Assembly: GCA_963770935.1 (NCBI GenBank)
Contig: CAVYRJ010000003.1
Coordinates: 1 to 64,000 of the forward strand
DNA length: 64,000 bases
Reading direction: 5' to 3'
Source of the DNA: Candidatus Bathyarchaeota archaeon
Lineage (GTDB): Archaea; Thermoproteota; Bathyarchaeia; Bathyarchaeales; Bathycorpusculaceae
Shown: in pieces, positions 2,936-35,453 of the stretch
Layout of the letters: the number at the start of each line of letters is the position of its first letter
How positions within the stretch are numbered: the first letter of the stretch is position 1
Program-made: the position numbers and the translations under genes
The notes under the pieces: generated by a model
The model's input: only the letters and a program-made list of their open reading frames with translations
Told to the model about the DNA's origin: nothing
Database searches by the model: none

Positions 2936-2939
2936 CACA

Positions 2940-3877: not shown

Positions 3878-3928
3878 CATATTTAAATATGCCGCCTGTC
3901 ATAATTTATGACGTGTGTCAAGACGGGC
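3878..3928. promoter_or_regulatory. Divergent promoter with palindromic TATA and candidate operator
   Basis: CATATTTAAATATG palindrome (3878-3891) and GTCATAA-T-TTATGAC inverted repeat (3898-3912) between two divergent regulator genes. Confidence 0.55.
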
Positions 3929-4001
3929 AGCAGTAACAAAAAACCTCATCTAAAACACCTAATTCTACGCCCAACAGACACACTCAAAAGGAGAAAAAAC
4001 A

Positions 4002-16957: not shown

Positions 16958-17048
16958 TTTTCCATGCTTTCTAGATGGACTACCTTCATTTTTGGTTACT
17001 GTCTAATATGGGTTTTCTGGACTAATTTGATGGATTTCGTTCAACTGA

Positions 17049-18370: not shown

Positions 18371-18456
18371 AGGGCTAACGCCTTCTTCACTGGAGCGAAT
18401 AATGCCAAATACGCACTCAGAAGCACAACCAGCATTTCCCTCCCCACCCGCTATAA

Positions 18457-18594
18457 CTAAGGAGAACCCTCCTTCTCTTTTTGTTGGGTTTCGGGCGCTT
18501 CATACACCGCCACATAAACGCCCAACTCCGCCACAAACGCCAACGCCCTAACCGTCGGATTCACCCTAACTTGCTCACGGCGGCAAGCCTCCAT
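18457..18594 (-). CDS. Possible 45-aa small protein upstream of the integrase
   Basis: Manual translation [45 protein letters not shown] in a GC-rich patch. Confidence 0.25.
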
Positions 18595-19109
18595 ACGGTG
18601 ATTGATTCGCTTGTTTCAGGCGACTTTAACTGGTTAAACAGTAAAGTGCCGTTGGCAAATTTGCTTATCTCCCATAGTTCAATGGGTAAATCCCTGAAGT
18701 TGATGGCTTGCTTTTGATATTTGGTGAATTGTGGGGAGACAAAGATGACTTTTGATTGTGACCAGTCAACATCATCCCGCTTAAGGCTCGCACCCTTGCT
18801 TTCGTTGTATTCCAGGATAAACTCTGCTTTGTTGTTTAGTAGCAAACCAAGGTAGGCGTAGCCTTGGTCGATTACGCTGAAGCTTTGGTCTATCTTGTAT
18901 TCGATAATAACGAATGATTTGTTTTCATTGTCGAAGGCTAATGTGTCTATTCTTAAGCTACCGAGTTGAAGCTCTGACTTGACAAATTCATAGTCGAAAA
19001 CTTCTTTGAGGCTTGATTCAGTGGTATGCTGAATATCTTTGCGCTCATTCTTGAAGGGAACCTCTTTGATTTTTTCAAGCCTATCGCTCTTTACCGAAAA
19101 TAGCGGCAT
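18561..19109 (-). pseudogene. NucS/DUF91-like PD-(D/E)XK nuclease, probably C-terminally truncated
   Basis: RIDTLAFD...FVIIEYK...VIDQGYAY; family-like sequence stops at [11 protein letters not shown] where base composition changes (~18595). Confidence 0.7.
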
Positions 19110-19330
19110 ATTAGTTAAATGAGGTCTATTTCTTTAAAAAACTTGGCACTTGCGTGCATCCAGATGGTTGCCAATACATATGAATGAGTTGTTGGACGTT
19201 TAGAACTGATTAAGAAAAGGATTTGCTTCCAGGTTCCGGTTTGTTTCACTTTTTCTAAGCGCTTCTTTAGCAAAGTTTTATCCGTTGTTACGGTCAACAA
19301 TTCTACTATCACATTCATGGAGGCGAATTT

Positions 19331-19492
19331 ATGGCAAAATGTCCAAAGTGCGGAAAGGAAGTCGCTCCTAAAAAAACTTGGAAGATGGCTGGCAGGCCTG
19401 ACAAAGCAGGAAAAAGAATGGAATTAACAATCGGTCTGAGCGAGTGCTGCGGGCAAACCTTTAGGACAGTAATCAGCAAGCAGAAAATCTGA
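19331..19492 (+). CDS. Cren7-like small chromatin protein, Cys/Zn variant (53 aa; not in ORF track)
   Basis: MAKCPKCGKEVAPKKTWKMAGRPDKAGKRMELTIGLSECCGQTFRTVISKQKI; PxKxW, IGL and G..FR pattern of Cren7; GGAGGCGA SD; T-rich terminator. Confidence 0.75.
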   Translation: MAKCPKCGKEVAPKKTWKMAGRPDKAGKRMELTIGLSECCGQTFRTVISKQKI

Positions 19493-19690
19493 TTTGCTGA
19501 AAAAATCATAAAACATTCTTTTGTTTTCTTTGGATTTAATTTTTTATCAAATATTAGTTGTGCATCTGTCAGTAGGAATTTATAAAGGAAGCAAAAAACC
19601 ATTGTTTTTTGGTTCCAAAACTTTCATTATCCTGACCTTGCAAGCATAGGCTTAAAGGCAAATTAGGGTAAGTTAACTTGGTGATAGAAT

Positions 19691-19885
19691 ATGTCTTCAG
19701 AGCCAGAGGAAATCCAATATGTTCAAGCTATGTATGCTTTTGAAGAATTTGTAAAGATACTTGTTGTAGAATACCCGTTGGTATTCAAGGATGGATCAGG
19801 AGTCATAGAGATTAATCGTTCAACTAAGAAACAATTCTTCCCCTATGAAGCCTCTATAAATATACGAAAAATAATTGAAAAATAA
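19691..19885 (+). CDS. Small hypothetical protein
   Basis: GGTGA SD, CTTAAA TATA-like box upstream, stop overlaps next start (TAATG). Confidence 0.55.
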   Translation: MSSEPEEIQYVQAMYAFEEFVKILVVEYPLVFKDGSGVIEINRSTKKQFFPYEASINIRKIIEK

Positions 19886-20496
19886 TGGGTAAATTATCTA
19901 AGAATCAGCAAAAAAGAGAATTAGTAGCTGTCGATGTTAAGCAGGCAAAGCAATCAACGTTGGAGGATCTATCTTTTCAGTTTAACATTGATAGAACCAA
20001 AGAGGCAATCAAGCCTTCAAAAGCAATAATTATTAACCGCATCGCTGATACAACCAAAGAAGACGAATTAGCACTTAAAGTTGAATTTAGCTTGCTGCCT
20101 TCAAAAGTGTCATTTTCAAAAATAAATCTCGATTTGTATTTTCAAGAGAACCTGCTCAAATCAATACCCCTTCATATCACTCCAAGTGGCTTGCTGGGCG
20201 ATAATTTGGAGTATCCCTTAGCCTTAGATATGAAAGGAATTGCAGAGGGCAACTATCTAATCAGAGTTGAAATGTTTGAGCCATGGTCTTCTGGTGAAAA
20301 ATTAAACTTCACTTCTAAAGAAATTGCTGTTCAATACGTACCGCAAACTAGAGCTGATAGACTGGTGAAACTACCAACTGTGAAGAGTGTTCCAGGAACC
20401 GATTTAACAGTTGTTTCATCGACCGCTAAAAACATTTATCGAGAAATAGAACAAGACCAAAAACAAGAAGCAATAAGCAAAAGAGATGAATGGTAG
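19885..20496 (+). CDS. Hypothetical protein, probable beta-sandwich domain
   Basis: 203-aa ORF coupled to upstream gene; GNYLIRVEM Ig-like strand pattern. Confidence 0.65.
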   Translation: MGKLSKNQQKRELVAVDVKQAKQSTLEDLSFQFNIDRTKEAIKPSKAIIINRIADTTKEDELALKVEFSLLPSKVSFSKINLDLYFQENLLKSIPLHITPSGLLGDNLEYPLALDMKGIAEGNYLIRVEMFEPWSSGEKLNFTSKEIAVQYVPQTRADRLVKLPTVKSVPGTDLTVVSSTAKNIYREIEQDQKQEAISKRDEW

Positions 20497-20744
20497 TACC
20501 TCAAGACGAGCGCAGGGAAGGAACTTATCAATCATTTCGTATCCAAAACCATTAAGTGCCATTCTTTAGATGGGAAGTGGTGTAGTTCCAATCTCATAAT
20601 TACTTCTTGTAATATCTGTTGTAGTATTGCAACAATCACATGGTCTTTAATAGAATTAAACTCATAGAGGTAGTAACGGGATCAGGATTTTTATGAATTT
20701 TATTAATAAAGTTAAGTGGGATCTGTCTTCATTTGTGATGGCTC

Positions 20745-20815
20745 TTTTTGTTGGGGTTGAAAGAAGGGAAAGAGATAGGCGACTTAAAGAAAGGCTCCTA
20801 CGTTTACAGTGAAAA
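20745..20815 (+). repeat. 71-bp dispersed repeat, copy 1
   Basis: 62/71 ungapped identity (manual count) to 28335-28405. Confidence 0.9.
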
Positions 20816-20957
20816 AAATTGATTCCAAGAACTTTCTGGGAGCGAAGTAGGCAAAATCATAAGAAAGAAACCTAAAAAACTATTGACTTGTCTGTTTGAA
20901 AAAAGGAACAAATTTACAAGGGAGAATTTGTAATTTTTATCATAAGGAGATAGTGAG

Positions 20958-21089
20958 ATGAGTAAGAAAGGAGAGACAGGAGAGCGTGATCGGGGGAAAC
21001 CTCAGCCTCGAAAAAAGAAGGACAGGGATGATGCCCGCAAGAAGAAAAAACTCGACAGAGCTGGAAGACAGCAGTCAAGACCGGCTTAG
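20958..21089 (+). CDS. 43-aa highly basic small protein (not in ORF track)
   Basis: MSKKGETGERDRGKPQPRKKKDRDDARKKKKLDRAGRQQSRPA; AAGGAG SD. Confidence 0.55.
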   Translation: MSKKGETGERDRGKPQPRKKKDRDDARKKKKLDRAGRQQSRPA

Positions 21090-21161
21090 ATAAATTGTTC
21101 TATTGCCAACAGTCAGAGTTAATCTTTGACAAAAAGCGAAAAAAATAGCTATGACTAAACG

Positions 21162-21332
21162 CTACTCGAATTTTCCGCCGCACATTGGGCAGTTTTTCTT
21201 TATTGTGTTTGAAGGTGTTGGAAGTTGGAGTGTGCAGTAGAAGCAGAAGTATATCTTGCATTTTTGGCAGCAGTAGAATCCGCCGCCTATGTATTTTCCG
21301 CAGGCGTCACATGGTCTTGATAGATCAACCAT
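21162..21332 (-). CDS. 56-aa Cys-rich Zn-finger protein (RING/FYVE-like spacing)
   Basis: CDAC, CQKC, CFYC, CPMC. Confidence 0.6.
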   Translation of the reverse strand: MVDLSRPCDACGKYIGGGFYCCQKCKIYFCFYCTLQLPTPSNTIKKNCPMCGGKFE

Positions 21333-21607
21333 AAAACTCACAGGGCTATTTTGCCTAAAGACCATAAAAAGCAAGGCGTTGAAACGACTATACCCGTAAT
21401 GGAGGGATAGGTAAAAGCAAAAATAACGAATTTGCAAATCTGACTTCGCAAGCTTTAGCGAAACCTTCTCAACAGAAGAAACGAATTACTCTTCGCAAAA
21501 AACGTTATCATGCATAATAACAAGTAAACCGATTAAGTTGATTGGAAAAAAAATAAACAGCAAAAAAACAGATTAATTCATGTATTAATGAAGAAATTCA
21601 TGGAAAA

Positions 21608-21796
21608 ATGCCAGTTTACAGCTGCTCATGTGGAGTTAAAATTCTAATTCTTCCAGACTTACCTGAAATGAGTAAAGCCATAAAAAATCATGTGGCTGTA
21701 CATAAAAAGTTATGTGGGCAAATCTTAACTGAAGATAATCTCACACAAGAAATCCTATCAGTCATCATAGAAGCTATATTTGAAACTCGTCACTGA
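21608..21796 (+). CDS. Small C2H2-type Zn-binding protein
   Basis: CSCG...HVAVH. Confidence 0.55.
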   Translation: MPVYSCSCGVKILILPDLPEMSKAIKNHVAVHKKLCGQILTEDNLTQEILSVIIEAIFETRH

Positions 21797-21965
21797 ATAT
21801 ATTAATAAAAGCACTTCAATCAACGACCTGTTGCTTTAGTTAAAAGAAGATCGCTATCAGCTTTTGCAAATTTTTTAATATGAAATTTTTTGTAAGGGAA
21901 TCGTTAAGTTCAGTTTCTGATAATAATATATTGTTCTTAAATTATAACTTAGGAGGAATAAAATT

Positions 21966-22271
21966 TTGGCCAATACATACAATGATCCTAATATTCCAAT
22001 CAAAGTGAAGACTAATCAACATTTTGAAATATCATTGGAATCAAACCCTACAACCGGTTACACATGGAATGCCGAATTTGATACGGCAATGTTAGAACAG
22101 CTCCAGCCAAAAAAATTTATTCTCAGATCAACGGCAATTGGCGGCGGTAGCGAAGAGTTATTTAAATTTAACTCCAAAAAAATAGGTGAAACCACTATAT
22201 TGATGAACTATGGTAGGATGGGAGAAAATACTCCTATAAAAACACAAAAATTCAATGTTATAATTAGCTAA
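21966..22271 (+). CDS. Chagasin-family (I42) cysteine-protease inhibitor
   Basis: LESNPTTGYTW, IGGG, FKF, YGR motifs; AGGAGG SD. Confidence 0.88.
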   Translation: MANTYNDPNIPIKVKTNQHFEISLESNPTTGYTWNAEFDTAMLEQLQPKKFILRSTAIGGGSEELFKFNSKKIGETTILMNYGRMGENTPIKTQKFNVIIS

Positions 22272-22428
22272 TTCGTACACCTTGTGAAATTCTTAGACTT
22301 GGAAAATTTGTGTTGAGCAATGCCATACGTTTTGCCTCAAAAAGCTGCGCCGAATTACCTACTAGCTCAAAATTAAAGCAATAATCGCTCCAGAAATTGA
22401 ATCCAAAATGTTGTTTGATTGGTCAGCG

Positions 22429-25068
22429 CTATGGTCTTTTTTTGATAATCAATAGAGCTGCTATTGCAATAGCTATAATTATGGCGACTCCTGTACCCAA
22501 AATGTACATTTCCACTGGAGACTGGGCAACTGCTGGCTGCGGCGTGGGTGTCAGTGGTGCTTCACCTACTGTTAAATAGGTTGTTGCAGTGGAAGGACCG
22601 TATGATTTGGAGCCTGCGAACATTGCAATTATCTGGTATGTCCCTGGTATTTCTGGGGTATATGGAAGAGCATAATTTCCGCTGATGTCGCTGGTGGTGT
22701 TACCGATGTGGACTAAGTTGCCGTTTGGATCAATAGTGTCCAAGCTAACTGGAACTCCCTTAGCGTTTGCAGGTTTCGGTTGCTGGTGGAACATATATTC
22801 CATCCAGGCTTCCATGTCTTCGTCGGATATTGCTGGTGTACCTTTGAGGATGAAGTCTTTGCTGCCTGCCGCATTGTATCTTCCTGAAGGAGATTGATCA
22901 GTTACGGTGCCTTCTATCAGTATGCGGTCTCCATTTGCTGATACTTTCGGAGATGCAGACACTGTGGTGGCGCTTGGTCCCATGCCATAGCAGTATATGG
23001 AGTTGTCAATTATGCTGTTGCCAACAAGGTAGCCGTCTGCAAGGTTCACAGATCCCCAGTGCTGTATTTGCCATAATAGTTCTCCTGTTTCTGCGTCTAC
23101 GCACCATATGTGTGCGTCGCGTCTTAGAGGCATAGTGGGCGAATGCTCGGTTGTGTAGAGGTATAGTTTTCCGTCTGCAATGCAAGCCATTGAAAGCGGA
23201 GAATTTGGATAGAAAGTTTCTCCTAAGCCATAGAGCGGGGCTGACCAGTTCCAAAGGATATTTCCTGTCTTTATGTCATAGGCGATTAGTTCTCCGCTGT
23301 AGCCGTAGCTAAAGAGTTTCCCTTGATAAATGCTGGTGCTCATGCCATAGTAGTTGAATTGGTCTTCGCTTGCGGTGGGACCCCAAAGCAATTGTCCTGT
23401 GTCAAGGCTGTAAGCCCAACGTGTCCTTGTGTATCTTTCTACAAAAGTAAAGACACCATCTTCAGGGTCTACATTTTGAAGTGAAACTCCGCCTGCTTCC
23501 CCGAGGTATGTGCTGTTAAGATATTTTTCTGCTGATTTTGGCGGTGTAAAGGGGATGTCCCACAGTGTTGTGCCTTCTTGACCTGGTTTTAGACTGTATG
23601 CCCTTAGAAAACCTTGGACTGTTCCTCTGTCGTCATTTAATCCTTGAGTTCCAACAATCACGTATTCATCCTCACGAACTGCTCGAATGGTGCCTGTTTC
23701 GTTGAGAATTGCGTTACGTGGACCCAGAATACTTGAAATCGATACGTTTAATGAGAATCCTTTGTTCCCGTCGAAGGTGTAGTTTAAGATGGGTCTCCAC
23801 ATTAAATAGGCGTTACCGCGGGTGCCAATTATACTTGTGTCATACATAGCTGACAAGATAGCTTGACTTGTGTTCCATACTTGCAAATAGTATTTCGGAT
23901 TTGCTGTGTTTCCAAGGTTGACTGTGTTGTATCGTCGAATGCTTCCGTCCTTGGCGTAAACCGCTGTACCTGCGGAGGAGACGTTAGCTATGCTGGATAG
24001 GTATTCGCCTGTTTCTGCATCAAACAACATCCAGTATTCGGGGGGTGGGTGCAGTTGTGCTCCATAAGTATGGAAAGCCTCCATGTTGGTTTCCAGACTC
24101 ATAGTTGTATACCTGACCAAAAGCAAGTGATTGTATAGGATTGCTCCTGAACTGGCAAAACCACTTCCGATTCCTGAAATGGGACCGGTAGTGTTATGGA
24201 AGTAGAGCGTTTCGCCTGTATAGAGGTCAACAGCCCACCATCCATATCTGGGCGGTGTCAAATCGTTGTAGAAGATTTTTCCGTTAATGATAATGTCGGG
24301 AGAGCCATAGCTTTCGTATGACATTCCTGAATAATACCCAACGCTGCCAAAACGCTCGTCCATGATGCCTCCAGCCCAATGTGGCTTTGACCACATTATG
24401 TGAGCACTTTCAGGTGCTTTGCCAAAGCCGAAATTAGTTGTTGGGCCATTTTGCTGAGCGGCACCGCTGAGCCAGTTAGCTGCGAGCAGATACCAGTCTC
24501 TGTTAGAACCGTATATTGGGCGCGTCCAGTAATCGTTTGGAAGCGGTGTTTCTTGATATTTGGGTATTGCCTCTTGTTGTACAGTAATTATTGTTGGCTG
24601 GCTTGTGCTTGGGGCAAAAGTGTCGTTAATATATGCTAAACCCGGTTGGTTAATAGGTGCAAAGGGTTGACCAGTTAGTGTTTGTCCAGGGAATCTGGCT
24701 ATGACAGTATATATGCCCGTTTGAGTTGGTGTATATAGTGTGAAAGCGCCTCCCACTGGGTCAGAACTGATAGGACCTATTGTTTCTTTGGTCTGGTCAG
24801 GCTTTGTGATGTCCAGGTAGAATTTCCATCTGTCACCATACGTGCCTGTTGATGTGGGCGGTATCCAGTCGATCCAAAAGACAATTAGAGTTTCTTGGCC
24901 CACTCCTATGGTTTCTGGTATGGCGGCAACGTAGCAGTATGTAGGAATATCAGTCCATGGAGGATAATGTGCATTGACAACTGACAAATTTATAAACGGA
25001 AAAGCGATAGCTATTACTAGAAGCAATGTTATCAAAGTAGTTATTGTTTTTCTATTTGCGAATTTCAT
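22429..25068 (-). CDS. Secreted, C-terminally anchored PQQ-like beta-propeller protein (paralog 1); compensated frameshift ~24040-24135
   Basis: Signal peptide, Ig-like N-domain, AxDxxTG..W blades, IADGKLY..TEHSP, C-terminal TM + KKRP. Confidence 0.88.
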   Translation of the reverse strand: MKFANRKTITTLITLLLVIAIAFPFINLSVVNAHYPPWTDIPTYCYVAAIPETIGVGQETLIVFWIDWIPPTSTGTYGDRWKFYLDITKPDQTKETIGPISSDPVGGAFTLYTPTQTGIYTVIARFPGQTLTGQPFAPINQPGLAYINDTFAPSTSQPTIITVQQEAIPKYQETPLPNDYWTRPIYGSNRDWYLLAANWLSGAAQQNGPTTNFGFGKAPESAHIMWSKPHWAGGIMDERFGSVGYYSGMSYESYGSPDIIINGKIFYNDLTPPRYGWWAVDLYTGETLYFHNTTGPISGIGSGFASSGAILYNHLLLVRYTTMSLETNMEAFHTYGAQLHPPPEYWMLFDAETGEYLSSIANVSSAGTAVYAKDGSIRRYNTVNLGNTANPKYYLQVWNTSQAILSAMYDTSIIGTRGNAYLMWRPILNYTFDGNKGFSLNVSISSILGPRNAILNETGTIRAVREDEYVIVGTQGLNDDRGTVQGFLRAYSLKPGQEGTTLWDIPFTPPKSAEKYLNSTYLGEAGGVSLQNVDPEDGVFTFVERYTRTRWAYSLDTGQLLWGPTASEDQFNYYGMSTSIYQGKLFSYGYSGELIAYDIKTGNILWNWSAPLYGLGETFYPNSPLSMACIADGKLYLYTTEHSPTMPLRRDAHIWCVDAETGELLWQIQHWGSVNLADGYLVGNSIIDNSIYCYGMGPSATTVSASPKVSANGDRILIEGTVTDQSPSGRYNAAGSKDFILKGTPAISDEDMEAWMEYMFHQQPKPANAKGVPVSLDTIDPNGNLVHIGNTTSDISGNYALPYTPEIPGTYQIIAMFAGSKSYGPSTATTYLTVGEAPLTPTPQPAVAQSPVEMYILGTGVAIIIAIAIAALLIIKKRP

Positions 25069-25168
25069 TTTTTTTTCCTTTTCCTAAAATTTGTTTGGCA
25101 AGAAAAACCTTTTCGGTAACAGGTTGCCCTGCCAACAAAAAACAGTAGCTTAAAAGAGGTATATTAAA
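25069..25168 (-). promoter_or_regulatory. Promoter and hairpin leader of propeller paralog 1
   Basis: TTTAATAT (25168-61), 24 nt, then GTTGGCAGG GC AACCT-loop-AGGTT TTT CTTGCCAA, then AGGAAAAGGAAAA before ATG. Confidence 0.6.
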
Positions 25169-25327
25169 TTATTCAGAAGTCACGATAAATAATACTTATG
25201 CAATAATATTAATCCCAATTTCATGCCTGCTCGCTTGTTCACTGAACACTAATGTATTGGAGAAAACTGTTATGCGTTTTCGACCTAAGTTGCTTCTTAT
25301 TTCATTATTTATTCTTACGTCTTCTAA

Positions 25328-25510
25328 TGCTAACTCGGACGAGTAGCACACGGTTAGAGACGGCAATTCTCCTAAACCGAAATTTTTTGCAAGCCCTTAA
25401 CCGTGCCGCATGTTGCAAGCGGTATCTATCAGGATTTTATGGGATACCACCTTTAGCTTCGACTTTTATTTTTAGAAAAATCGTCGTAGACTCGTCCTAA
25501 TTTTAGGATT
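25328..25510 (+). ncRNA. Candidate structured RNA or MITE-like element
   Basis: Nested inverted repeats GGACGAGT/ACTCGTCC, CACGGTTA/TAACCGTG, GGTATC/GATACC, CCGC/GCGG in an AT-rich spacer; strand uncertain. Confidence 0.35.
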
Positions 25511-25672
25511 GTTTGGTTTATGTTTTCTTTTTGAATATTTTGACTATTTGATTGTCTTTCAGAAAGAGTAATCACTATTAGTTGCAGGTAATTAGACTTA
25601 AGACTAACTGTTTAGATTCAAGAAAGCTTCATCTATTTTCCGCACATAAGCATAGAGAGTTGACAGGTTAGT

Positions 25673-25770
25673 TTTAAATAATCTTACTTACAGACTTGAT
25701 TCTGTTGGTTGGCGACCTTTCATAGGTTTGCTTACCAAAGGCAAATTATAGGAAAGGAAAAGTAAAAATG
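25673..25770 (+). promoter_or_regulatory. Promoter and hairpin leader of propeller paralog 2
   Basis: TTTAAATA (25673-80), 23 nt, then GTTGGTTGG CG ACCT-loop-AGGT TTG CTTACCAA, then AGGAAAGGAAAA. Confidence 0.6.
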
Positions 25771-25816
25771 AAAATCGCAAAGAAAATGACAATAATTTCT
25801 AACAGACCCAGGAAAT

Positions 25817-28265
25817 ATGATTAAAACCGCTATTACCGCGATTCTAATAATGACGCTCGCTATCACGTTTTTTGCGGGAGTTAAGCCAACCGATGCCTTG
25901 AAAACAGCTTACATTCAAGCCTATGCGGAACCTAACCCTACGGGCATCGGTCAAACCATGTTGATTGGAGGATGGATTACACCCCTCCCAAGTTACAGCC
26001 TACCCAACTTTGTCTACTGGGCGAACTTAACATTTCAGATCACAAAACCCAGCGGATCAGTCGGAACACTTGGCCCCTACACTGGTGGTTCAGCCGCAAA
26101 TCTCGCTGTGAAATATGTTCCAGATCAACTAGGCAATTACACTATCAAGATTTCATGGGATGGAGCCAGTTCGAGCCCGTCCCAATCCTATACCTATGCA
26201 CCTGTTTCGTCAACTACGACATTTACAGTGCAAGAAGAAGCCATTGTTCCCTGGCCAGGCGAAGCACTTCCAGGTCCGAACGATTACTGGGAACGCCCCA
26301 TAAATGCTGAATACAGAGAATGGAACGTCCTTGCGGGATCATGGTATTATTCGCAAGGACCATCGCGAGGCGGATACGACTCATCAGCAGCTAATTATCA
26401 ACCATATAGTCTAGCACCTAACACACCGCACATTAACTGGGCTAATAAAGTAACTCAAGGAGGCTTAATTGGCGGATTATCAGAAAGCGAGAAGTTCAAT
26501 GAAATCGTTGACATGCCCATTCTGGGCGGAATTGGCATCTACGCTGACAATTGGTTAACTGACCCTCATACAGCCGGATATGGAGCATTAATCGGCTCCA
26601 CCGAACCTGGATTTCCTAAGAGCACAGATAAGACAACGTTTACCCTTCACGGTATAGACATACGGACTGGAGAGGAACTGTATTCTCAACCAGCGTACTC
26701 ATTTGGGCTTTCTCCATCCGGTGGAACAGGTAGAACCGGTTCAATGCTGCGTGGATACATAGAACCCGTTCCAGCTTTGATGAGTTCAGGCGGAGCAGGT
26801 CCCAAAGCTTACTTGTTTGCCACGGGAAGCACCTTTGTCCGATGGGATGCTTTCACAGGAACACAGATGCTTGTAATGAACAGCACATTAACTGGAGCAT
26901 TTGACGGGAGATACGTGTACAGCAGAAGTGGCAGCAACCTAATCAAGTGGGACCTTACAGCGCTTGGAGGAGGCGAAACAGTTGCTGATGTAGTTGTTTA
27001 TAACGTGACCGCTCCTTCACTTGTAAGAGGAAACAGCACGACATACCTGTCCGTAGGCATGTTAGAGGGAACCCTAGGCTTAAGTACGTACACAGTCTCA
27101 TATGCTGATGGAACATCAGATCCGGGACTTGCTGGCATTGACTTAGAAACAGGAAAGCTACTGTGGAACAGAACTTTAGTTGGCTGGGGAAGCGTTAACC
27201 CGCAGTTCACATCATGCATTTCAAACGGAAAATACTTCCATATGTCATATGATACTAAGTGGCATTGTTTCGACATGAAAACCGGAGCAGAATTATGGGT
27301 AAGTGAACCCTCAGAATTGCCGTGGGGTCTCTTCGGAGGATATGCCTCAGCTGGTGCCTACAATCTATTCTACTCTTTCAGATACGACGGATACATCCGC
27401 GCCATTAACTGCACTACAGGGAAAACAGAATGGAACTATTACAGTGGCAACTCAGGAACAGAAACACCTTACGGTACATGGCCTTGGTTTAGCCCACCAG
27501 CCATTGCTGATGGAAAACTCTACGCAGCCACAAGCGAACACAGCCCCAGCAATCCCCCATGGAGAGGCAGCAAACTGTACTGTTTCAACGCAACCACAGG
27601 AGACGTAATATGGTCCTTCCCGTGGCTTGGAGGATACAAAGCTGTAGCAGACGGAATACTAGTAGCAGCCAACGAGTATGATGGGCGACTATATGGCTTT
27701 GGCAAAGGTCCAACTGCAACATCAGTTTCAGCATCGCCAAAAATCTCACGAACTAGAAAACAAAATACTGGTTGAAGGCTCAATCACTGACATATCCCCC
27801 GGCACAAAAAGCTCTGCACTTACAGCGCGTTATCCAAATGGAGTTCCAGCTGTTGCAGATGCAGACATGAGCACATGGATGCAATACCTTTACCTACAAA
27901 ACTTCACAATAAATCCTTCTGACGTAAAAGGAGTTGAAGTCGTGGTGAAAGTACTTGACCCAAACAACAACTACTACGAGGTTGGAAGAACTACTAGCGA
28001 CTCAGATGGCTTCTTCAAGACGACGTTTGAACCAGAAGTTCCAGGCGATTATAAAGTCGTCGCTGAATTTGAAGGCACTCAAGCATACTACAGTTCAAAT
28101 GCGAAAACTGCGATAAGCGTAACTGAAGCGCCACAATCAACAGAAGAGCCTGCCCAGCCGGTATCCATCTCTGAGCAGTACTTGCTACCGGGAATAGTAG
28201 CAATAATCGTTTCCATCTTTGTGGTTGGAGCAGTGCTTGGCATACTGATATTTAAAAAGAAGTAA
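25817..28265 (+). CDS. PQQ-like beta-propeller surface protein (paralog 2); +1 indel near 27749
   Basis: Same architecture; SASPKIS|ELENKILVEG aligns with paralog 1 SASPKVSANGDRILIEG if one base is removed; TM + KKK end. Confidence 0.85.
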
Positions 28266-28334
28266 GCAAAACAAATAAAACTCCTCTTTTTTTGTTTCCG
28301 TTCTACATTGAAATTTTCTGTCTTCGTGTAACTA

Positions 28335-28405
28335 TTTTTGTTGAGCTTGAAAGAAGGGAAAGAGGTAGGCGACTTAAAGAACGGCTTCTCCGTTTATAAT
28401 AAAAA
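28335..28405 (+). repeat. 71-bp dispersed repeat, copy 2
   Basis: Matches 20745-20815; lies just downstream of paralog 3. Confidence 0.9.
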
Positions 28406-28432
28406 GGGGGAAATGTTGTTTGGTTGGTCGTG

Positions 28433-30907
28433 CTATGGTCTCTTTTTAAACAGCATTAATCCGACTACGGCTATTGCAATGATTATAGCGATGGTTGATA
28501 CAGCAATGTACGTCATTATGTCGGTTGTTGTTGCTGTGATTGGTTGGGCTGTAGTGGTTGGTGTTGTTGTGGGTGTAGAGTAGACTGTAAAGGCTGAAAC
28601 TGCGTTGGATGACCCGTAAGAGTTGGATCCGGCAAATGTTGAGATAACTTGGTAGGTGCCTGTTCCAGCTGCAAGCGTATCCGTATTAACTCCTAAACTG
28701 TACTGGCCGCTTTTTGCATCGCTTGTGGCATCGCCAAGGTGTACTAAGTTGCCATTAGGATCAATCGCGTCGATTGACACTGGGACTCCTTTTGCGTTTG
28801 TTGGATATGCTTGTTGCTCGTATAGGTATTGCATGAATCCTTCTTGGCTATCATCAGATACTGCTGGGGCGCCATTTGGGAATAATGCTACTTGAGATGG
28901 ATTCTTTGTACCTGCAGATTCATCTTTCACGTTGCCTGTAATTGTAAAGCTAGAGCCTAGAGAGATGCCGCTTAGTGGTGCTGTAACTGTGGTGGAGCTT
29001 GGTCCCTTTCCGAAACCATAAAGTCGATTGTCATCTCCGTTTAGCGATACTAGGATTCCATCTGCGACAACACAAGGTCCCATGCCTGAACCACGACCTC
29101 CACCTGGACCATTCCACAAGCCTAGCACTTTCCATATGCCCTGCCCTGTTTCAGCATCGATGCAATGCAGTCTTTCTCCTCTAATCGGTGGACTATTTGG
29201 GCTGTGCTCGTTTGTTGCAATATAGATTTTCCCATCAGCAATTGTCATGCCACCAAAGAAGGGATATTGACCATAGGGAGTTTCAAAGCCTCCATCTCCA
29301 GACGCGTATTCCCAAAGTATTTTACCAGTTGCTAGATCATGGCAATGAACTAAACCGTCGTAACCAGCTACATATAGGTGACCGTAAGCTATCACTCCAG
29401 CTGCTGGATAAACAGCCCAACCATTCGTGTAGGGCTCAGAGGGACCCCATATTTGTTTACCAGTGAGCAAACTGTAGGCATTCCATTGCATTGTCTCTTT
29501 AATGAATCTGCAGTAGACGCCTTCACCTATGGGGGATGGGATGTTTCCTCCAGGCGAAGATAGAGATTGGTTTTCCGGGAGCGCTGCGCGGGTCTCGTTC
29601 CAAAGCATTGCGCCTGTGGTTGCGTCGTATCCTATGTCCATTGTACCGGCTGCAGCTAATAGTATGCCGTTGGAATATCCACGCATTGAAGTAATTGCCT
29701 GCGTGCCTGGTACATCGGGTACTGTAACATTCCATTGGATTCCTCTTGACCAGTTATATGTCTGTCCAGCACGAGGTCTCCATTGCCAATAGTTTGTTCC
29801 AGTTGTTCCAGCAAGTAGTTGAGTGTTATAGGAAGAGTTCCACAGGGTAAGCCGATTTTGTGTTCCGCTGAGAATATAGCATAACAGGTCACCAGCTGCC
29901 GATTGCGCGAAAAGGCCAGTGGATGCGTTTGCAAATTCGCATATCAAGTCTCCATTAAACGGGTCATACATTTGCCAGGTTGTGCCAGTCGTACTCCATA
30001 GATACGGTATTACTCCATGTTGGTTTGGTGAGTCATAGGCGTAAAGTTGCCCTCTTGAGATAGTTATGTTCTTCCACCAAATCTCCTCTCCAGTAGTTAG
30101 GTCAACACACATCGTTCCTGCAAACGAAGACGACCCTAATGGTGTGGAATAAAAGAGTCTGCCGTTAATTACTACAGGTGGTATCCATTTGCCTTCATAT
30201 GACAAACCATTGTAATAGTCTATGGAGCCGAATGGACCACCGACTAATCCGCCAAAAGCTATCTCTTTTGTCCATAGAATATGGGAACTGTTCGGTGCTG
30301 AAGTGTAGTTGGCGAATGCTCCTCCGTCTCCAAAAAATCCTCCGCCTCTGAAATCATAGTTGTAACCGCTTTGCAGCCAATTATCAGTTATTGACCACCA
30401 GTCTCTGTTCTCAGCGTTTATTGGGCGAGTCCAGTAATCGGTCGGTAATGGGTTGTTGGGGTATGATGGTATTGGCTCTTCTTGAACTGTCAGTTGCGCC
30501 GTTAAACTCATGCTTGGTTTATAATAGCTATTTGTGAGGTTTTCCCCTGCGAAGAAAGCTTGGAATGTATAATTGCCTATTTGGTCAGGGGTATATTTGG
30601 TGTATCCTGCTGCAACAGTATCTGAGGGGTATGGTCCTAGTGTTTCATTTTTTCCGTCGGGTTTTTGAACTGCGATTGTGAAGCCATGCCAGACATTTCC
30701 GGATGTGGGTGGAATGCTTGAAAGAAAGAAAGCAATTTCTACTTGCTGGCCTTTTCCCACAGTATGGGGGGCAACAGAAATGAAGAGGTAAGTTGCTGTA
30801 TCTGACTTAGCAAGTGGCAAGCTAACAAAGAAGGAAGCAGTTATTAATAGGAAAATACAAAGCGTGACTAAGTTTAGCTTTATTCGTATAAGTTTAGTGT
30901 TTTTCAT
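28433..30907 (-). CDS. PQQ-like beta-propeller surface protein (paralog 3), intact
   Basis: Signal peptide, DYWTRPINAENR, NQHGVIPYLW, IADGKIY..NEHSP, Thr-rich linker, TM + KKRP. Confidence 0.9.
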   Translation of the reverse strand: MKNTKLIRIKLNLVTLCIFLLITASFFVSLPLAKSDTATYLFISVAPHTVGKGQQVEIAFFLSSIPPTSGNVWHGFTIAVQKPDGKNETLGPYPSDTVAAGYTKYTPDQIGNYTFQAFFAGENLTNSYYKPSMSLTAQLTVQEEPIPSYPNNPLPTDYWTRPINAENRDWWSITDNWLQSGYNYDFRGGGFFGDGGAFANYTSAPNSSHILWTKEIAFGGLVGGPFGSIDYYNGLSYEGKWIPPVVINGRLFYSTPLGSSSFAGTMCVDLTTGEEIWWKNITISRGQLYAYDSPNQHGVIPYLWSTTGTTWQMYDPFNGDLICEFANASTGLFAQSAAGDLLCYILSGTQNRLTLWNSSYNTQLLAGTTGTNYWQWRPRAGQTYNWSRGIQWNVTVPDVPGTQAITSMRGYSNGILLAAAGTMDIGYDATTGAMLWNETRAALPENQSLSSPGGNIPSPIGEGVYCRFIKETMQWNAYSLLTGKQIWGPSEPYTNGWAVYPAAGVIAYGHLYVAGYDGLVHCHDLATGKILWEYASGDGGFETPYGQYPFFGGMTIADGKIYIATNEHSPNSPPIRGERLHCIDAETGQGIWKVLGLWNGPGGGRGSGMGPCVVADGILVSLNGDDNRLYGFGKGPSSTTVTAPLSGISLGSSFTITGNVKDESAGTKNPSQVALFPNGAPAVSDDSQEGFMQYLYEQQAYPTNAKGVPVSIDAIDPNGNLVHLGDATSDAKSGQYSLGVNTDTLAAGTGTYQVISTFAGSNSYGSSNAVSAFTVYSTPTTTPTTTAQPITATTTDIMTYIAVSTIAIIIAIAVVGLMLFKKRP

Positions 30908-31033
30908 TTTTTTCTTTTCCTTTCATTTTAAGAAGCAAACTGCTTCCACTCAATTCTTATCTTCTAAAAAGCTAATAAGAAAGTGCTAGGACACGTCGAT
31001 GAAACCTTAATATTGTAAAAAATAAATAGGGAA

Positions 31034-31879
31034 GTGCGCACCAACATGCCTATTCAATCGAGATCCATTTTTCAGGATAAAGGCCTCCAACTTCTTACTA
31101 AACTAGGATTGAGTCCAACGCAAGCAAAACTTTACTTATCACTTCTGGAAAGGAGAAACGCAACAGCATGGGAACTCTCCAAAAGCATGGGTCTCCCAAG
31201 ATCAGAAATCTACAGAGCAATAAGTGAACTGCAACTAAAAGGATTAACCCAAAAAGAAGTAAGTTATCCAAACAAGTTCAGCGCAATCCCAATAATGACC
31301 GGACTCCAAATCCTGCTAAACCATAAAGTTGAACAATGTACAGATTTAGAAAAAAATATCAAGACTTATGTTCAAAAGGCGCAGTCATTTCATGAGGATG
31401 CTCTTCAGGAGCGTGAATACAAGATTACAATTATTGAGGGAAAACATGGAATACTAAATAAAATATCTCAGCAGCACAAAAATGCTCAACGAAGCGTGAA
31501 AGTTCTTACCACTTTTCCAAGATGGCTGCAAATAATCCGTTGCTGCATTAAGGATTATGAGGCAGCGTTAGCGAGAGGTGTAGAATATCGAATAGTCTTG
31601 GAAAATGCCGAAGGTAGATTGATGCTGCCAAAAGAAGTAGAGCTTTTATTATCTAAACCAAATTTTAAACTTGCGACCCATGTGCGCCCTCTCAAGTCTA
31701 ATGGTGCAATTTTTGATGATAAGGAAGCATCCATCAATTTCTTCCCAGGAAAGTCGCTATCGGAATCTCCATTTATTTACACAAACCACCCAAGTTTAAT
31801 ATCGATGCTAGGTGACCAGTTTGAGAAGACTTGGAAGAATAGTTTGAAATACATCTCAACAACTAGACACGAAAAATGA
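31034..31879 (+). CDS. TrmB-family transcriptional regulator
   Basis: LGLSPTQAKLYLSLL, LPRSEIYRAISELQLKGL, C-terminal effector domain (IFDDKEA). Confidence 0.88.
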   Translation: MRTNMPIQSRSIFQDKGLQLLTKLGLSPTQAKLYLSLLERRNATAWELSKSMGLPRSEIYRAISELQLKGLTQKEVSYPNKFSAIPIMTGLQILLNHKVEQCTDLEKNIKTYVQKAQSFHEDALQEREYKITIIEGKHGILNKISQQHKNAQRSVKVLTTFPRWLQIIRCCIKDYEAALARGVEYRIVLENAEGRLMLPKEVELLLSKPNFKLATHVRPLKSNGAIFDDKEASINFFPGKSLSESPFIYTNHPSLISMLGDQFEKTWKNSLKYISTTRHEK

Positions 31880-32032
31880 TCTCATAGTCACATCAGAGAT
31901 TGTGGTTTTGGTAGAGAGATACTTCTCATAAAACAAATATGATAGGTAGGTGTGAGTATATTTTTAGTTTTCAAGTCAGACTATTTTTGGTTCTTTATCT
32001 TTCATCCTCCTTTACTCGCTATTGAACTCAAG

Positions 32033-32512
32033 TTATTTTCCTGACGATTGAGTATATTGCATGGATACGGTTATTCTATTCCGGCTGAGACTATGTTTAA
32101 TTTCGTTGTTTATTCTCGAATTTCCTCTACCTTTACTGGCGTGACCAAAACGAGTTATTTTCCAGTTATCGATGTTTCCTCGAATTATCTGCGGATTGCT
32201 TGTTAGTATGTAGAAGGGTATTTTTGTCTGGGAAGTGTAAAGGTCAGCAACAAAGTTTAGAAGTCGTTTTCCCACGCCGATTCCTTGATAGTCTGGAAGC
32301 ACCACTAAACGGCTGACTCGATAATACTTTGCTTTCATTCTGACGCAAGCCACAGCTATGAACGCTATAGGTTTGTTTTGGAAGATGGCAACGTAGCATC
32401 GGACACCTGCACCCAAGGAGCCGCTTAGATAGTGATAGTTCCGAAACATTTTCCATAGGCTTGGGCCGCACCGATAGATTTGGAGTTCAACGGGCGGCCT
32501 ACTTCTTTTTTT
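32033..32512 (-). CDS. GNAT acetyltransferase domain, probably translated as a -1 frameshift fusion to the upstream ATPase
   Basis: WKMFRNYHYL, RVSRLVVLPDYQGIGVG (motif A); frame open back to the A7 run at 32506-32512. Confidence 0.82.
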   Translation of the reverse strand, partial: KKRSRPPVELQIYRCGPSLWKMFRNYHYLSGSLGAGVRCYVAIFQNKPIAFIAVACVRMKAKYYRVSRLVVLPDYQGIGVGKRLLNFVADLYTSQTKIPFYILTSNPQIIRGNIDNWKITRFGHASKGRGNSRINNEIKHSLSRNRITVSMQYTQSSGK

Positions 32513-33105
32513 CGGCTAAACTCCATCGTGTCAGTGCAGAAAACCCAGTCAGGATCTAGCCAATCAACCACGTCATAGTGGCATGTAACAGCTATGAATT
32601 TCTTGGAGCTTCTGCGAACAGCCTTGCTAATAGCAAATGCGCTAACTTTAGCTATCTCTCTATCTACAACTGAAGTAAACTCATCGAACACAATAAGTGG
32701 CTTCTCTAAACAGAGCGCACGTGCTATATCCACCCGCATCTTCTCTCCCTGACTCAAACAATCGTAAGCCTTCAACCAATCCGGTGGCGAAGCAAAACCA
32801 ACGCTGCCAAGCATCTTGGTAATTTCAGATGTCTCAATTTCCGTAGGAAAGTCATCTAGAACACACTTGTCTTTGTACTCAAAGTCTCGTATGTAAGCGT
32901 CTGGAAAAAGCTGCTTAGCTATACTTGTTTTGCCTGAGCCGCTGCGCCCAACGATAACGCCAACTTGCCAGTCAAAATCCTCAAGCGGCAAGGACCCTCT
33001 GAACCGCTTCTCCAATTTAACATCGCTTAGCGTGTAGCTGCCGACGACGCTTTGTGCTCGGAAGCTGTCGCTTTCTTCCCAGCGTTTTACAATGTCAAAA
33101 TCCGT
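32425..33105 (-). CDS. Soluble ABC-type ATPase of virus/mobile-element type (start uncertain: ACG 33105 or TTG 33015)
   Basis: GRSGSGKT Walker A, LSQGE signature, IVFDEF Walker B, VTCH H-loop; frame open upstream as TDFDIVKRW...SFRAQSV. Confidence 0.85.
   Translation of the reverse strand, partial: TDFDIVKRWEESDSFRAQSVVGSYTLSDVKLEKRFRGSLPLEDFDWQVGVIVGRSGSGKTSIAKQLFPDAYIRDFEYKDKCVLDDFPTEIETSEITKMLGSVGFASPPDWLKAYDCLSQGEKMRVDIARALCLEKPLIVFDEFTSVVDREIAKVSAFAISKAVRRSSKKFIAVTCHYDVVDWLDPDWVFCTDTMEFSRKKEVGRPLNSKSIGAAQAYGKCFGTITI
32464..32512 (-). promoter_or_regulatory. Candidate -1 programmed ribosomal frameshift signal
   Basis: A_AAA_AAA heptamer in the correct phase, 6-nt spacer, stem GGCCGCCCG-17nt-CGG(T)GCGGCC. 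Confidence 0.65.
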
Positions 33106-33641
33106 AGCTTATACCCCTCCGCTTTTAATTTCTCAAAATATTCTTTTTGCTGGACCTCGCTTCGGCACTCAATTATAAGCTCGTAAGTTTCAGGAACCGA
33201 AAAAGAGACCTCTCGGTCATCTACCTCTATGGGGAGCTTTTCGCCGACGGATTGAAGGAATAACTTTAATTCCTCTTTTTCTCCCTCGTCAATTATGCGC
33301 AGGTACTCGGCACTATCCATCTCCCTGTTATGCTTGCCCCGTAGCTTGTTTAGCACCTGCCGAAGCAAGCGGCGATCAACATCCTTAACTGGCAAGCGAA
33401 TGACACTGCACTCGGTCATGCCAAGCTCCTTCATAGCCGTAACCCGCTGCTGACCATCAGCCACCAAAAGCTCACTGTTGGTAACGACGGGAACTATGTC
33501 TCCCCATCTTCTAATAGAAGCTTTCAAGCGGTCAAGCTGGGCAAGACTCATCCTGTTAGGATTGTCTTGGTCAAACTTGAGATCACTGATCTTCACACGT
33601 TCCGACATTGGAATCGGAATTTCTTTTTCAAGCTCACTCAT
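33087..33641 (-). CDS. ParB/Srx N-terminal-domain protein
   Basis: NPNRMS...LKASIRRWGDIVPVV...VADGQQRVTA. Confidence 0.85.
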   Translation of the reverse strand: MSELEKEIPIPMSERVKISDLKFDQDNPNRMSLAQLDRLKASIRRWGDIVPVVTNSELLVADGQQRVTAMKELGMTECSVIRLPVKDVDRRLLRQVLNKLRGKHNREMDSAEYLRIIDEGEKEELKLFLQSVGEKLPIEVDDREVSFSVPETYELIIECRSEVQQKEYFEKLKAEGYKLRILTL

Positions 33642-34300
33642 TCCGCTTTCTCTTCCATTTTCTTATCTAAACCTTTAATGAGGGCTTCCCGTTCCTCTGG
33701 ATGCTCTTCATAGTACTCCCTAATTTTACGTGAAATAAACTCGTCATGGAACCCCTCGAACTTCTCAAAACTCTTCTCAGTGAACACGCCCTCGGGATAG
33801 ATCGCTTTTATTTTTGCGTCTACCGCGTCCCACCAAGCAAAATCGTCAAACGCGGGGTCGTCCTCGTTTCGGTTATTGTTGTATTCATAATCTTCTATCA
33901 GGCAGTCGTGGTTGAATTTCTTCATCTCATGGAAGAACCACATAACTCTGAGCATAACGCGTGAGTCTTCGCCTTTGGGATATGCGGCAGCGAACCATTT
34001 ATAGAGTAAGCGTTCTAAGCGGTAGCTTAAAAATTCGTGTGATTGTTCAAGAATGGCGTTTTCCTGGTCTGTTAGTTTGCTTAGAAGCTGTTTGGCTGCC
34101 TCGTTTTGTTGTTCCGGGCTTGTGCCGCTGTTTATTATGGCTTGTGCGTCGTCTTTGAAAGATGCTCTTATTTTCTGTGCGTGGTCATGCAGGAGTTGTT
34201 CGTCTAAGTTGCCAATGTTGAGCATTATGTCGTCGTCTTCTGGGGGAAAGTCTAAAATGTTATCTTCTAATTCGTGGAGTTTACGGCTTAACAAATTCAT
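33638..34300 (-). CDS. Acidic hypothetical protein
   Basis: 220-aa ORF overlapping both neighbours (TGATG, ATGA coupling). Confidence 0.7.
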   Translation of the reverse strand: MNLLSRKLHELEDNILDFPPEDDDIMLNIGNLDEQLLHDHAQKIRASFKDDAQAIINSGTSPEQQNEAAKQLLSKLTDQENAILEQSHEFLSYRLERLLYKWFAAAYPKGEDSRVMLRVMWFFHEMKKFNHDCLIEDYEYNNNRNEDDPAFDDFAWWDAVDAKIKAIYPEGVFTEKSFEKFEGFHDEFISRKIREYYEEHPEEREALIKGLDKKMEEKAE

Positions 34301-34740
34301 CAGAACCCTCTCCTAGCCCTTTCTGTCTTGGTTTTTTCGCCATCAGGTTGCGGTTTGGGAATCAGTATGCTATTTTTTAGCTTCTCCTCTAAGGCTATCA
34401 CTCTGAACTCTAACTCCTCGTCTTTGAGGAGGTTGCCGTAGGTTGAGACGGCTGAAACCATGACCCTTGCCCAGCCTTGTTTTGCTTTGTCGCTGTTTCC
34501 AGCACCATGAATTTTTTTGTGGGAGAGGCTTAAAACGCCGTCTAAAACGCGAAACAACGTATTTCTGCGGTCTTTAGCTGAACGGTTTAATGATGGTTTC
34601 TTATTGGTTTTAGCTTCAACTTCACCCAAGCTACACTGCGCCTTCTTGAGTTTGGCTCCAACACCAATGGAGAAAAGACAACGCAAAGAGTTAGCTCTCA
34701 AGACACCACAAAACAAGACAACAAATAGTGACTTACACAA
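34300..34740 (-). CDS. Hypothetical basic/helical protein, first gene of the ParB operon (start uncertain)
   Basis: WARVMVSAV...ELEFRVIALEEKL coiled-coil end; stop overlaps next start. Confidence 0.55.
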   Translation of the reverse strand: MCKSLFVVLFCGVLRANSLRCLFSIGVGAKLKKAQCSLGEVEAKTNKKPSLNRSAKDRRNTLFRVLDGVLSLSHKKIHGAGNSDKAKQGWARVMVSAVSTYGNLLKDEELEFRVIALEEKLKNSILIPKPQPDGEKTKTERARRGF

Positions 34741-35432
34741 TCCAAGAAATAAATTTTCCTATAAGTTTAAAATTTAACAAAAAATAATGTTGGTTTGTAA
34801 ACACTTTGAAACTTAATAAGAAAGACAAAGTACCACTTCTACGCGCTTTTTTTAGAATCATATTATTGGTAGTTGTATACTCTTGTCAATCACAAAACCT
34901 AATGAGTAAAAGAACCAAGGTATATGCAGTGGTTTCAATGAGCGTATCAAAACCTAATATAATCCAGAATGAAAAGGAGATTGCTTCTAAATCCGACGTT
35001 ATGCAACAGTCCAAAAACGACATAATGTTATTTAATAATGGAAAATTCATCATGGTTCAAGACAAAGAAGATCCCAAGCTATCTATAATGAAGTTCGAGT
35101 CAAAGCTCAAACAAGTATTGATGATTCCAGAAAAATGAATAAATCATTTTATTTTTGTCAAGCTCTTATGGCTTTTTGAAACTAGTGTCTTTCCTTGCCA
35201 GATTCGATGACATGCCTAAAAAAACAGGGTTGTGCGGGAGATTTTGCCACTTTAACCTTATAGAAGCCATAAAAGACTATTGAACGCTATTTCCTTTTCC
35301 TTAATTTTCGTCGTTCAGTTCTGTAATGTGCGTAAAGACTATTTCTAAGAATAAGTAGTCACAAAAAAAGAAATGGAAGATGCGTTTACACAGAGAGGAA
35401 AAACTGTTGGCGATGTCACCACTTGAAGTCAT

Positions 35433-35453
35433 TCCGTGCTAGACTACGAGCCC
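35433..35453 (+). repeat. att core copy 2 (displaced 5' tRNA fragment)
   Basis: Identical to 16937-16957; TTTAAA at 35483-88 on the upstream side is the probable native tRNA TATA box. Confidence 0.93.

Follow-up and report, generated by a model that had tools for sequence, protein, structure and literature searches.

A probable -1 ribosomal frameshift joining an ABC-type ATPase to a GNAT acetyltransferase in Bathyarchaeia elements

An ATPase and an acetyltransferase in two reading frames

The DNA analysed here, hereafter the window, comprises the first 64,000 nucleotides of contig CAVYRJ010000003.1 from assembly GCA_963770935.1 of a Candidatus Bathyarchaeota archaeon. On its minus strand, at positions 32033-33105, an ABC-type ATPase and an acetyltransferase of the GNAT family are encoded in two different reading frames that meet at a run of seven A's (A7). 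The zero frame (32425-33105, minus strand, 226 codons) extends from an ACG at 33105, a start position set by homology to relatives, to the TAA at 32427-32425, which terminates it 26 codons past the A7 run; it consists of the ATPase and a 26-codon tail. Across the junction this frame reads ...ATG GAG TTT AGC CGA AAA AAA GAA GTA GGC..., and the run forms the slippery heptamer A_AAA_AAA (32506-32512, minus strand) in the zero-frame phase X_XXY_YYZ. The -1 frame is closed by a TAG (32516-32518, minus strand) two codons before the heptamer. Beginning at the run, its sequence is KKRSRPPVELQIYRCGPSLWKMFRNYHYL..., and it extends through the GNAT domain to the stop at 32035-32033 (32033-32506, minus strand, 157 codons plus stop), with a linker containing the motif R-P...W..F..HY placed ahead of that domain. 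Counted from the ACG, the fused product has 357 amino acids. The heptamer is followed by the spacer GAAGTA (32500-32505, minus strand; 6 nucleotides), which is variable in relatives, and then, 6 nucleotides past the run, by a predicted RNA hairpin (32464-32499, minus strand), in which the 5' arm GGCCGCCCG (32499-32491) pairs with the 3' arm CGG-T-GCGGCC (32473-32464), leaving the T at 32470 bulged. The fold has a computed energy of -17.2 kcal/mol (z -3.38), none of 200 dinucleotide shuffles was as stable, and the hairpin matches no family in Rfam. The original prediction for this stretch had described the heptamer, the 6-nucleotide spacer, the 9-base-pair GC stem and the two frames, and that description turned out to be exact.

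Profile searches detect ABC_tran PF00005 (4.9e-10) in the zero-frame part and the GNAT families PF13508 and PF00583 (3.7e-9 and 2.7e-7) in the -1 part. Moreover, a single viral profile of 357 positions, phrog_11143, covers both, the ATPase part matching positions 35-201 (3.3e-57) and the -1 part positions 197-350 (3.7e-31). The two halves are collinear pieces of one protein type, with the frame changing exactly at the A-run, and in the window this collinearity exists only via a -1 shift. The same holds for the linker: R204, P205, W219, F222, H226 and Y227 are invariant in an alignment of 71 fused members, map between the heptamer and the zero-frame stop, and can be read in the window only after a -1 shift at the run. 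Gene callers would report such a locus as a truncated 'ABC transporter ATP-binding protein' and an orphan acetyltransferase or pseudogene, not as one recoded gene.

Selection acts on both halves. Among 82 distinct members of the clade, entropy at the three codon positions is 0.37/0.20/1.30 in the ATPase part; for the GNAT part in its -1 frame it is 0.53/0.31/1.47, at a median pairwise nucleotide identity of 0.68; the GNAT half is under codon-periodic purifying selection, like the ATPase half. In the 71 aligned fused members the ATPase motifs are invariant, including Walker A (S56, G57, G59 and K60), the signature motif (L118, S119 and G121), Walker B (D142 and E143) and the H-loop (H177), and the coenzyme A-binding motif Q-x-x-G-x-G of the GNAT domain is nearly so (Q275, G276 and G278). 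The structure of an in-frame homolog from a viral contig (L020) was modeled with a predicted local distance difference test score (pLDDT) of 92.4 and a predicted template modeling score (pTM) of 0.88. In this model the shift site falls in the loop that leads from the final strand of the ATPase (196-198) to the opening strand of the GNAT domain (210-214). The model of the GNAT part has a pLDDT of 83 and matches solved GNATs. Foldseek relates the whole model to ABC nucleotide-binding domains and the GNAT model to generic GNATs; searches against NCBIfam, Pfam and known folds gave generic ABC and GNAT matches only, with no clue to the substrate.

Conservation of the frame break and the hairpin

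Reference genomes, one per species, were scanned for relatives, and the best 80 of the 118 found were kept. These carry Bathyarchaeota/Bathyarchaeia labels in 73 cases, the label 'uncultured archaeon' in 2 and bacterial labels in 5. The bacterial-labelled loci (L067, L118, L133, L136 and L142) come from metagenome-assembled genomes (MAGs) attributed to Anaerolineaceae, Phycisphaerales, Gallionella and Alphaproteobacteria; four of them lie on contigs of 3-18 kb, suggesting mis-binning of these four, and L142 is located at the end of a 233-kb contig.

Junction states could be scored in 79 genome loci with adjacent halves from this set of the best 80 of 118. The -1 break is present in 76 of the 79 (A7 in 69, A8 in 3 and A9 in 4), and in the three A8 loci the eighth A was made by a G-to-A substitution that kept the break. 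The other three, two brought in frame by an extra spacer base and one at +1 after loss of a C from the stem, all belong to long-read MAGs with other indels nearby. Not one of the 72 genome loci of the A7/A8 type has regained the frame by an extra A in the run. Furthermore, the heptamer phase X_XXY_YYZ is kept in all A7, A8 and A9 relatives, the 26-codon zero-frame tail is common to 95 of 99 sequences (ending with TAA in 71 and TGA in 24), and the -1 frame is closed by a stop 2-3 codons before its first codon, AGA, in 87 of the 99. In a scan of viral contigs, 63 loci were found and the frame relation of their halves was determined by tblastn: the GNAT half lies in the -1 frame of the ATPase half in 20, L020 has ten A's and keeps a single frame, and the 42 others, which are more distant (39-54% identity), are simple in-frame fusions. 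The original prediction had allowed for an A8 misread as A7, and for close homologs that would be in-frame fusions without a conserved stem. Neither is borne out by the break kept in 76/79 genome loci and 20/63 viral loci and by a stem whose outer seven pairs form in 79/79 distinct sequences. Overall, about 100 independent assemblies, produced by many projects, share the break together with the phased heptamer and the stem, and the recoding site is real and strongly conserved.

The distribution of the break was also viewed on a tree of the ATPase part, a quick maximum-likelihood reconstruction with a midpoint root and, as its sole support measure, the Shimodaira-Hasegawa-like approximate likelihood ratio test (SH-aLRT). 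All rows labelled -1 fall within one 93-row clade (SH-aLRT 95), which also contains L020 (A10, in frame) and some rows labelled plus1, far or in-frame; a 34-row in-frame group and deeper in-frame rows lie outside it. The tree labels derive from first high-scoring segment pairs and differ from the junction classes for certain rows, some of them degraded copies (L111, L116, L134, L140 and L142, among others); the counts given here use the junction classes. In the window's genus, 12 of 25 genomes contain close homologs, frequently more than one copy; the 16 genomes searched from other families of the order yielded none. The window's own genome has three more ATPase/GNAT copies (C1:195964-196554, C17:25197-25723 and C13:11835-12110), all degraded by stops, extra indels or truncation. 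The A7 run and the 5' stem arm are kept in all three, and the 3' arm is intact in two and one base short in C13.

Within the window's clade, the hairpin is the most constrained element of the site. In addition to the universally formed outer pairs, two of the 79 sequences have a C-to-T change in the 5' arm that turns a C-G pair into U-G, and a six-pair inner extension of the stem is formed in roughly 63 to 97% of sequences. The arm codons AGG CCG CCC and CGG TGC GGC, read in the -1 frame, show zero synonymous variation in 82 sequences. Among control codons of the same gene that are likewise conserved and degenerate, 0 of 97 are invariant (mean 1.35 bits; Mann-Whitney p = 2e-5). Variation is free in the spacer, in the loop and past the stem.

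One viral locus of the first scan, L021, has the break without an A-run. A second scan with its ATPase part yielded 80 loci on viral contigs (L152-L231), 78 of them analysable, with a -1 break in 46 and an in-frame junction in 32. It turned out that in this sister clade 28 of the 40 distinct broken junctions have a short run and, beyond a spacer, a GC-rich arm of 6 bases that is perfectly complementary to a second one 36 or 49 nucleotides further on. Spacers of 6 nucleotides account for 26 of the 28 and spacers of 7 for 2; zero-frame phase is seen in 26 of the runs, the remaining two being T_TTT_TTC sites. The heptamers include A_AAT_TTT, T_TTT_TTT, G_GTT_TTT and G_GTC_CCC, several of which (e.g. 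A_AAT_TTT and G_GTC_CCC) are not long homopolymers. The 5' arm lies over the same Arg-Pro codons as that of the window. Five arm pairs occur, GCCCAC/GTGGGC in 20 junctions, CCCCAC/GTGGGG in 5, and GCCCGC/GCGGGC, CGCCAC/GTGGCG and CGCCAA/TTGGCG in 1 each; all are perfectly paired and represent compensatory changes.

The in-frame relatives on viral contigs (L178-L228) share an invariant A10, CAA AAA AAA AAT, in 26 of 26 distinct junctions, and in 25 of the 26 a -1-frame stop follows one codon past it. As judged from its frames, this group is a mirror arrangement, in which a slip would yield the short protein. At the junctions of more distant in-frame homologs, homopolymers of 6 or more are absent in 31 of 33. 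Run length and hairpin are also related within the broken loci: every A7 sequence has the hairpin, all hairpin-less lineages are A9, and L081 has both A9 and a hairpin. This pattern suggests that run length and stimulator are traded against each other, or that the mechanism has changed.

Proposed mechanism and alternatives

Programmed -1 ribosomal frameshifting, giving both the ATPase alone and an ATPase-GNAT fusion, is the probable explanation of the locus (we put it at about 0.7). It is also what the original prediction proposed, and the conserved break, phase and stem support it at the level of comparative sequence. Ribosomes would translate the ABC-ATPase in the zero frame until, at A_AAA_AAA, the GC hairpin 6 nucleotides downstream stalls them and a fraction slips back by one base. 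Slipped ribosomes would read on into the GNAT domain and yield the 357-amino-acid ATPase-GNAT fusion; those that do not slip would translate 26 more codons to the TAA and yield a 226-amino-acid ATPase without GNAT. We infer that the slip is ribosomal: such a slip is favoured by the phased heptamer, the fixed spacer of 6-7 nucleotides, the constrained 3' hairpin and the non-homopolymer heptamers of relatives. Both products are presumably needed, since simple reversion to an in-frame run is not seen and a mirror arrangement exists. The 'set ratio' of the original prediction would go one step further; the ratio of ATPase alone to ATPase-GNAT would be the selected trait if a two-product design is kept across the wider clade, a possibility taken up below. 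As a speculative rationale, an ABC dimer could carry fewer GNAT domains than ATPase subunits. For detection of the fusion by proteomics, trypsin would cut the junction peptide very small, as the junction consists of K and R residues.

Several observations weigh against ribosomal frameshifting or lessen the support for it. In E. coli, A_AAA_AAA is less shift-prone than A_AAA_AAG, according to a review (PMC5009743). The A9 lineages L011-L019, L132, L133 and L136 have no detectable hairpin (in L012, -6.5 kcal/mol and z 0.26). Even where the hairpin is present, its eighth pair, innermost in the 3-bp segment, is broken in 8 of 79 sequences by an A-C mismatch, its z in L064 is only -1.14, and in the window the inner extension is broken, leaving a hairpin weaker than that of L003 (-17.2 versus -22.8 kcal/mol). 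Synonymous variation is also lowered elsewhere in the overlap (TTT, CGG and TAT), so some of the constraint may reflect the zero-frame tail and not RNA structure. Of the comparison of homologs at the DNA level that the original prediction had suggested, the conserved frame break and slippery site came out as expected. As for covariation, compensatory arms occur in the sister clade; in the outer stem of the window's own clade, 0 pairs have both sides changed, since the arms do not vary, and the pair counts there weigh neither for nor against the stem. Finally, the 28 sister-clade junctions with paired arms compare with 4.65 hits in 40 on average, and never more than 11, over 200 shuffles of the 3' part, a comparison that overstates the support and gives no true probability, the sequences being related and not independent.

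The same proteins would result from programmed transcriptional slippage, in which the polymerase adds one A at A7 in some of the transcripts. We consider this unlikely for the window, although some observations favour it: the site is a pure homopolymer, some relatives have A9 and no hairpin, a combination that polymerase slippage fits better, and others are in frame with an invariant A10. Runs of A9-A10 length suffice for polymerase slippage, whereas A7 is short for it. Moreover, the 3' hairpin cannot form before the polymerase has passed the site, yet it is the most constrained element, and the sister clade keeps the 6-nucleotide spacing and the phase with heptamers (A_AAT_TTT, G_GTT_TTT and G_GTC_CCC) that are too short or too mixed for efficient slippage. 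The A9 and A10 forms suit transcriptional slippage better, and both mechanisms may coexist.

It is far less probable that the locus makes two separate proteins without recoding, the ATPase stopping at its TAA and the GNAT protein starting at an internal ATG (32449) or at another codon. The -1-frame open reading frame (ORF) from this ATG does encode 138 amino acids. However, only 63 of 82 clade members have this ATG, which lies downstream of the R-P and W that are conserved in the -1 frame, and a product starting there would lose the first GNAT strand (210-214 in the L020 model). In addition, the -1 frame opens just 2-3 codons before AGA in the 87 of 99 sequences mentioned above, and in the window no start codon occurs between the -1-frame TAG and the R-P motif.

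ParB-family proteins bind inverted repeats, and in virus relatives the module stands just before terminase and portal genes. The repeat could be a protein site on DNA, for example for the ParB-like partner encoded next to the ATPase, that happens to adjoin the slip site and does not act as an RNA stimulator. This is a still more remote prospect: the repeat keeps a fixed 6-nucleotide distance from heptamers that differ between two clades, its arms differ in sequence between the clades with complementarity kept, and the 5'-arm C-to-T change of two members preserves a G-U pair in the mRNA but creates a C-A mismatch on the other strand.

An assembly error (a true A8) or a decaying pseudogene is least credible of all: the break does fall at a homopolymer, the other copies in the window's genome are broken elsewhere and several loci in long-read MAGs have scattered indels (e.g. 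L143 and L109), but the same break occurs in the roughly 100 independent assemblies, purifying selection acts on both halves at the divergence given above, the catalytic motifs are intact, and of the fragmentary contigs from four public DNA runs, those of two cover 32506-32512 without an indel, none of them with 31 nucleotides on both sides of the run.

Among known systems, the nearest in design is E. coli dnaX, one gene from which a long and a short protein with a common N-terminal ATPase are made, with a hairpin a few bases downstream of the slip site. The window likewise has a close downstream hairpin and predicted long and short products with a shared N-terminal ATPase. Both heptamers are A-rich, that of dnaX (tau/gamma) being A_AAA_AAG in the description given in PMC5009743. 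By contrast, the window heptamer ends in A and not G, the host is an archaeon, the two genes have no sequence relationship, and the slip in the window would make the long product, not the short one; exactly the dnaX polarity is found in the in-frame A10 relatives with an immediate -1 stop. As for an upstream Shine-Dalgarno-like stimulator of the dnaX type, the window has GGAG 8 nucleotides upstream of the heptamer, and this element varies among relatives. Taken together, these forms raise the possibility that a clade of virus and mobile-element ATPase-acetyltransferases has kept a dnaX-like two-product design in both polarities, by A7 with a hairpin, by A9 and by a T-rich run with a hairpin on the one side and by an in-frame A10 with a stop on the other. 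We offer this tentatively, at odds slightly short of even.

In Archaea, a 2021 review refers in its abstract to fucA1 of Saccharolobus (S.) solfataricus as the 'only one case' of programmed -1 frameshifting and states elsewhere that its expression showed -1 recoding in this domain for the first time (PMC8211752). Predicted archaeal cases mentioned in this review and in a further one are those of haloarchaeal tailed viruses and magnesium chelatase (PMC8211752, PMC5009743). fucA1 resembles the window in its archaeal host, its poly-A site with a putative stem-loop, its two ORFs joined by -1 and its full-length relatives; as summarised there, however, its break is common to two strains only and all other homologs are full length (PMC8211752), whereas that of the window is found in about 100 diverged loci and its zero-frame product is a complete enzyme domain. 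The tail assembly chaperone G/GT of tailed phages and haloarchaeal tailed viruses is a conserved virus -1 shift that sets the ratio of short to extended product, the archaeal-virus cases being, in the account of PMC5009743, predicted from sequence alone. G/GT is a structural chaperone, whereas the heptamer and hairpin of the window lie at an enzyme domain boundary. The magnesium chelatase genes of bacteria and of Methanocaldococcus and Methanococcus have, according to the same account, a conserved A_AAA_AAR under purifying selection at an ORF overlap (PMC5009743); this too is an A-rich heptamer, in genes unrelated to those of the window. With -1 frameshifting shown experimentally for only one archaeal gene and predicted for others, according to the 2021 review (PMC8211752), the window site has unusually deep comparative support, and it most likely adds a -1 ribosomal frameshift to the few cases reported for Archaea. 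Its naturally occurring variants in heptamer, spacer and stem form a reporter-testable set; if the two-product design holds across the clade, Bathyarchaeia elements would provide about a hundred naturally varied -1 cassettes for archaeal ribosomes.

The protein family itself has a predicted function. A GNAT coupled with an ABC ATPase was proposed by Iyer, Zhang, Burroughs and Aravind in 2013 to modify a DNA base by acylation of an uncharacterised kind in a phage system, as recounted in a review (PMC7824862). The recoded gene belongs to this widespread virus module: the family is the same (phrog_11143), the ABC ATPase precedes the GNAT domain and a ParB-like gene is the neighbour. In the review's passage on the system, DNA acylation is likewise only a prediction and frameshifting is not mentioned (PMC7824862). 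By extension, the enzyme and its ParB-like partner may acylate a target on the element's DNA, and the two-product logic gives a starting point for the study of the predicted DNA-acylation system. Full-text literature searches, which did not cover supplements, found no published description of a frameshift in the ATPase-GNAT family or in Bathyarchaeia elements, and a survey of Bathyarchaeia viruses (PMC10848311), its supplements aside, mentions neither ParB, GNAT and acetyltransferase nor frameshift.

Start codon, element and neighbouring genes

Directly upstream of the ATPase frame lies the ParB-like gene (33087-33641, minus strand), identified as an ORF with matches to phrog_498 (4.3e-20) and to phrog_620, ParB-like (5.3e-16); its match to TIGR00180 is weak. 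The ATPase frame begins within the last 19 bases of this gene and contains no ATG, GTG or TTG before the TTG at 33015, yet homology to the N-terminus of relatives extends over the 31 codons upstream of this TTG, for which the model shows a confident strand and helix. The corresponding start codon was read in 72 distinct relatives: it is ACG in 48, ATG in 9, GTG in 9, and TTG, TCG and AAG in 1 each, the other 3 being mis-anchored. A GGAGG motif occurs 8-9 nucleotides upstream of the start position; in the window it is part of a putative Shine-Dalgarno-like sequence, GGAGGGG (33114-33120, minus strand), 8 nucleotides before the ACG, and GGAGG is kept in ACG-type relatives. These features suggest that translation starts at the ACG or that it reinitiates in coupling with the overlapping ParB stop. 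The alternative that a second -1 frameshift leads from the ParB gene into the ATPase frame was also considered; the 7-codon overlap contains no X_XXY_YYZ site, which makes ACG initiation or reinitiation more likely. If so, about two thirds of the Bathyarchaeia genes, besides being frameshifted, would also start at a non-canonical ACG.

The original prediction had placed the gene in an archaeal element. Indeed, it lies in an integrated element of 18.5 kb (16937-35453) at a tRNA gene of a Bathyarchaeia genome. The element is delimited by identical 21-nucleotide direct repeats (16937-16957 and 35433-35453), the first of them inside tRNA-Arg(CCG), and its integrase is encoded at 17049-17792. It also encodes three large beta-propeller/immunoglobulin-like proteins and a TrmB-type regulator; capsid, terminase or other virion genes were not recognisable in the 18.5 kb. 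When 58 full-length genome loci are compared, only the ParB and ATPase/GNAT genes (about 1.6 kb) are similar at the nucleotide level, with the similarity breaking off immediately past the GNAT stop; the two genes behave as a conserved core bordering a variable region. Across L064-L143 the similarity lies at about 2400-3980 of each locus, and flanks are almost never shared. On viral contig L012, which is of the A9 type, a small gene, a large terminase and a portal gene come after the pair.

Elsewhere in the element, two overlapping plus-strand ORFs, 25817-27775 and 27678-28265 (652 and 195 amino acids), have PQQ-like beta-propeller and filamin-type matches. Together they resemble the single 879- and 824-amino-acid paralogs nearby, with no obvious homopolymer in the overlap, and may represent a frameshifted or split copy.

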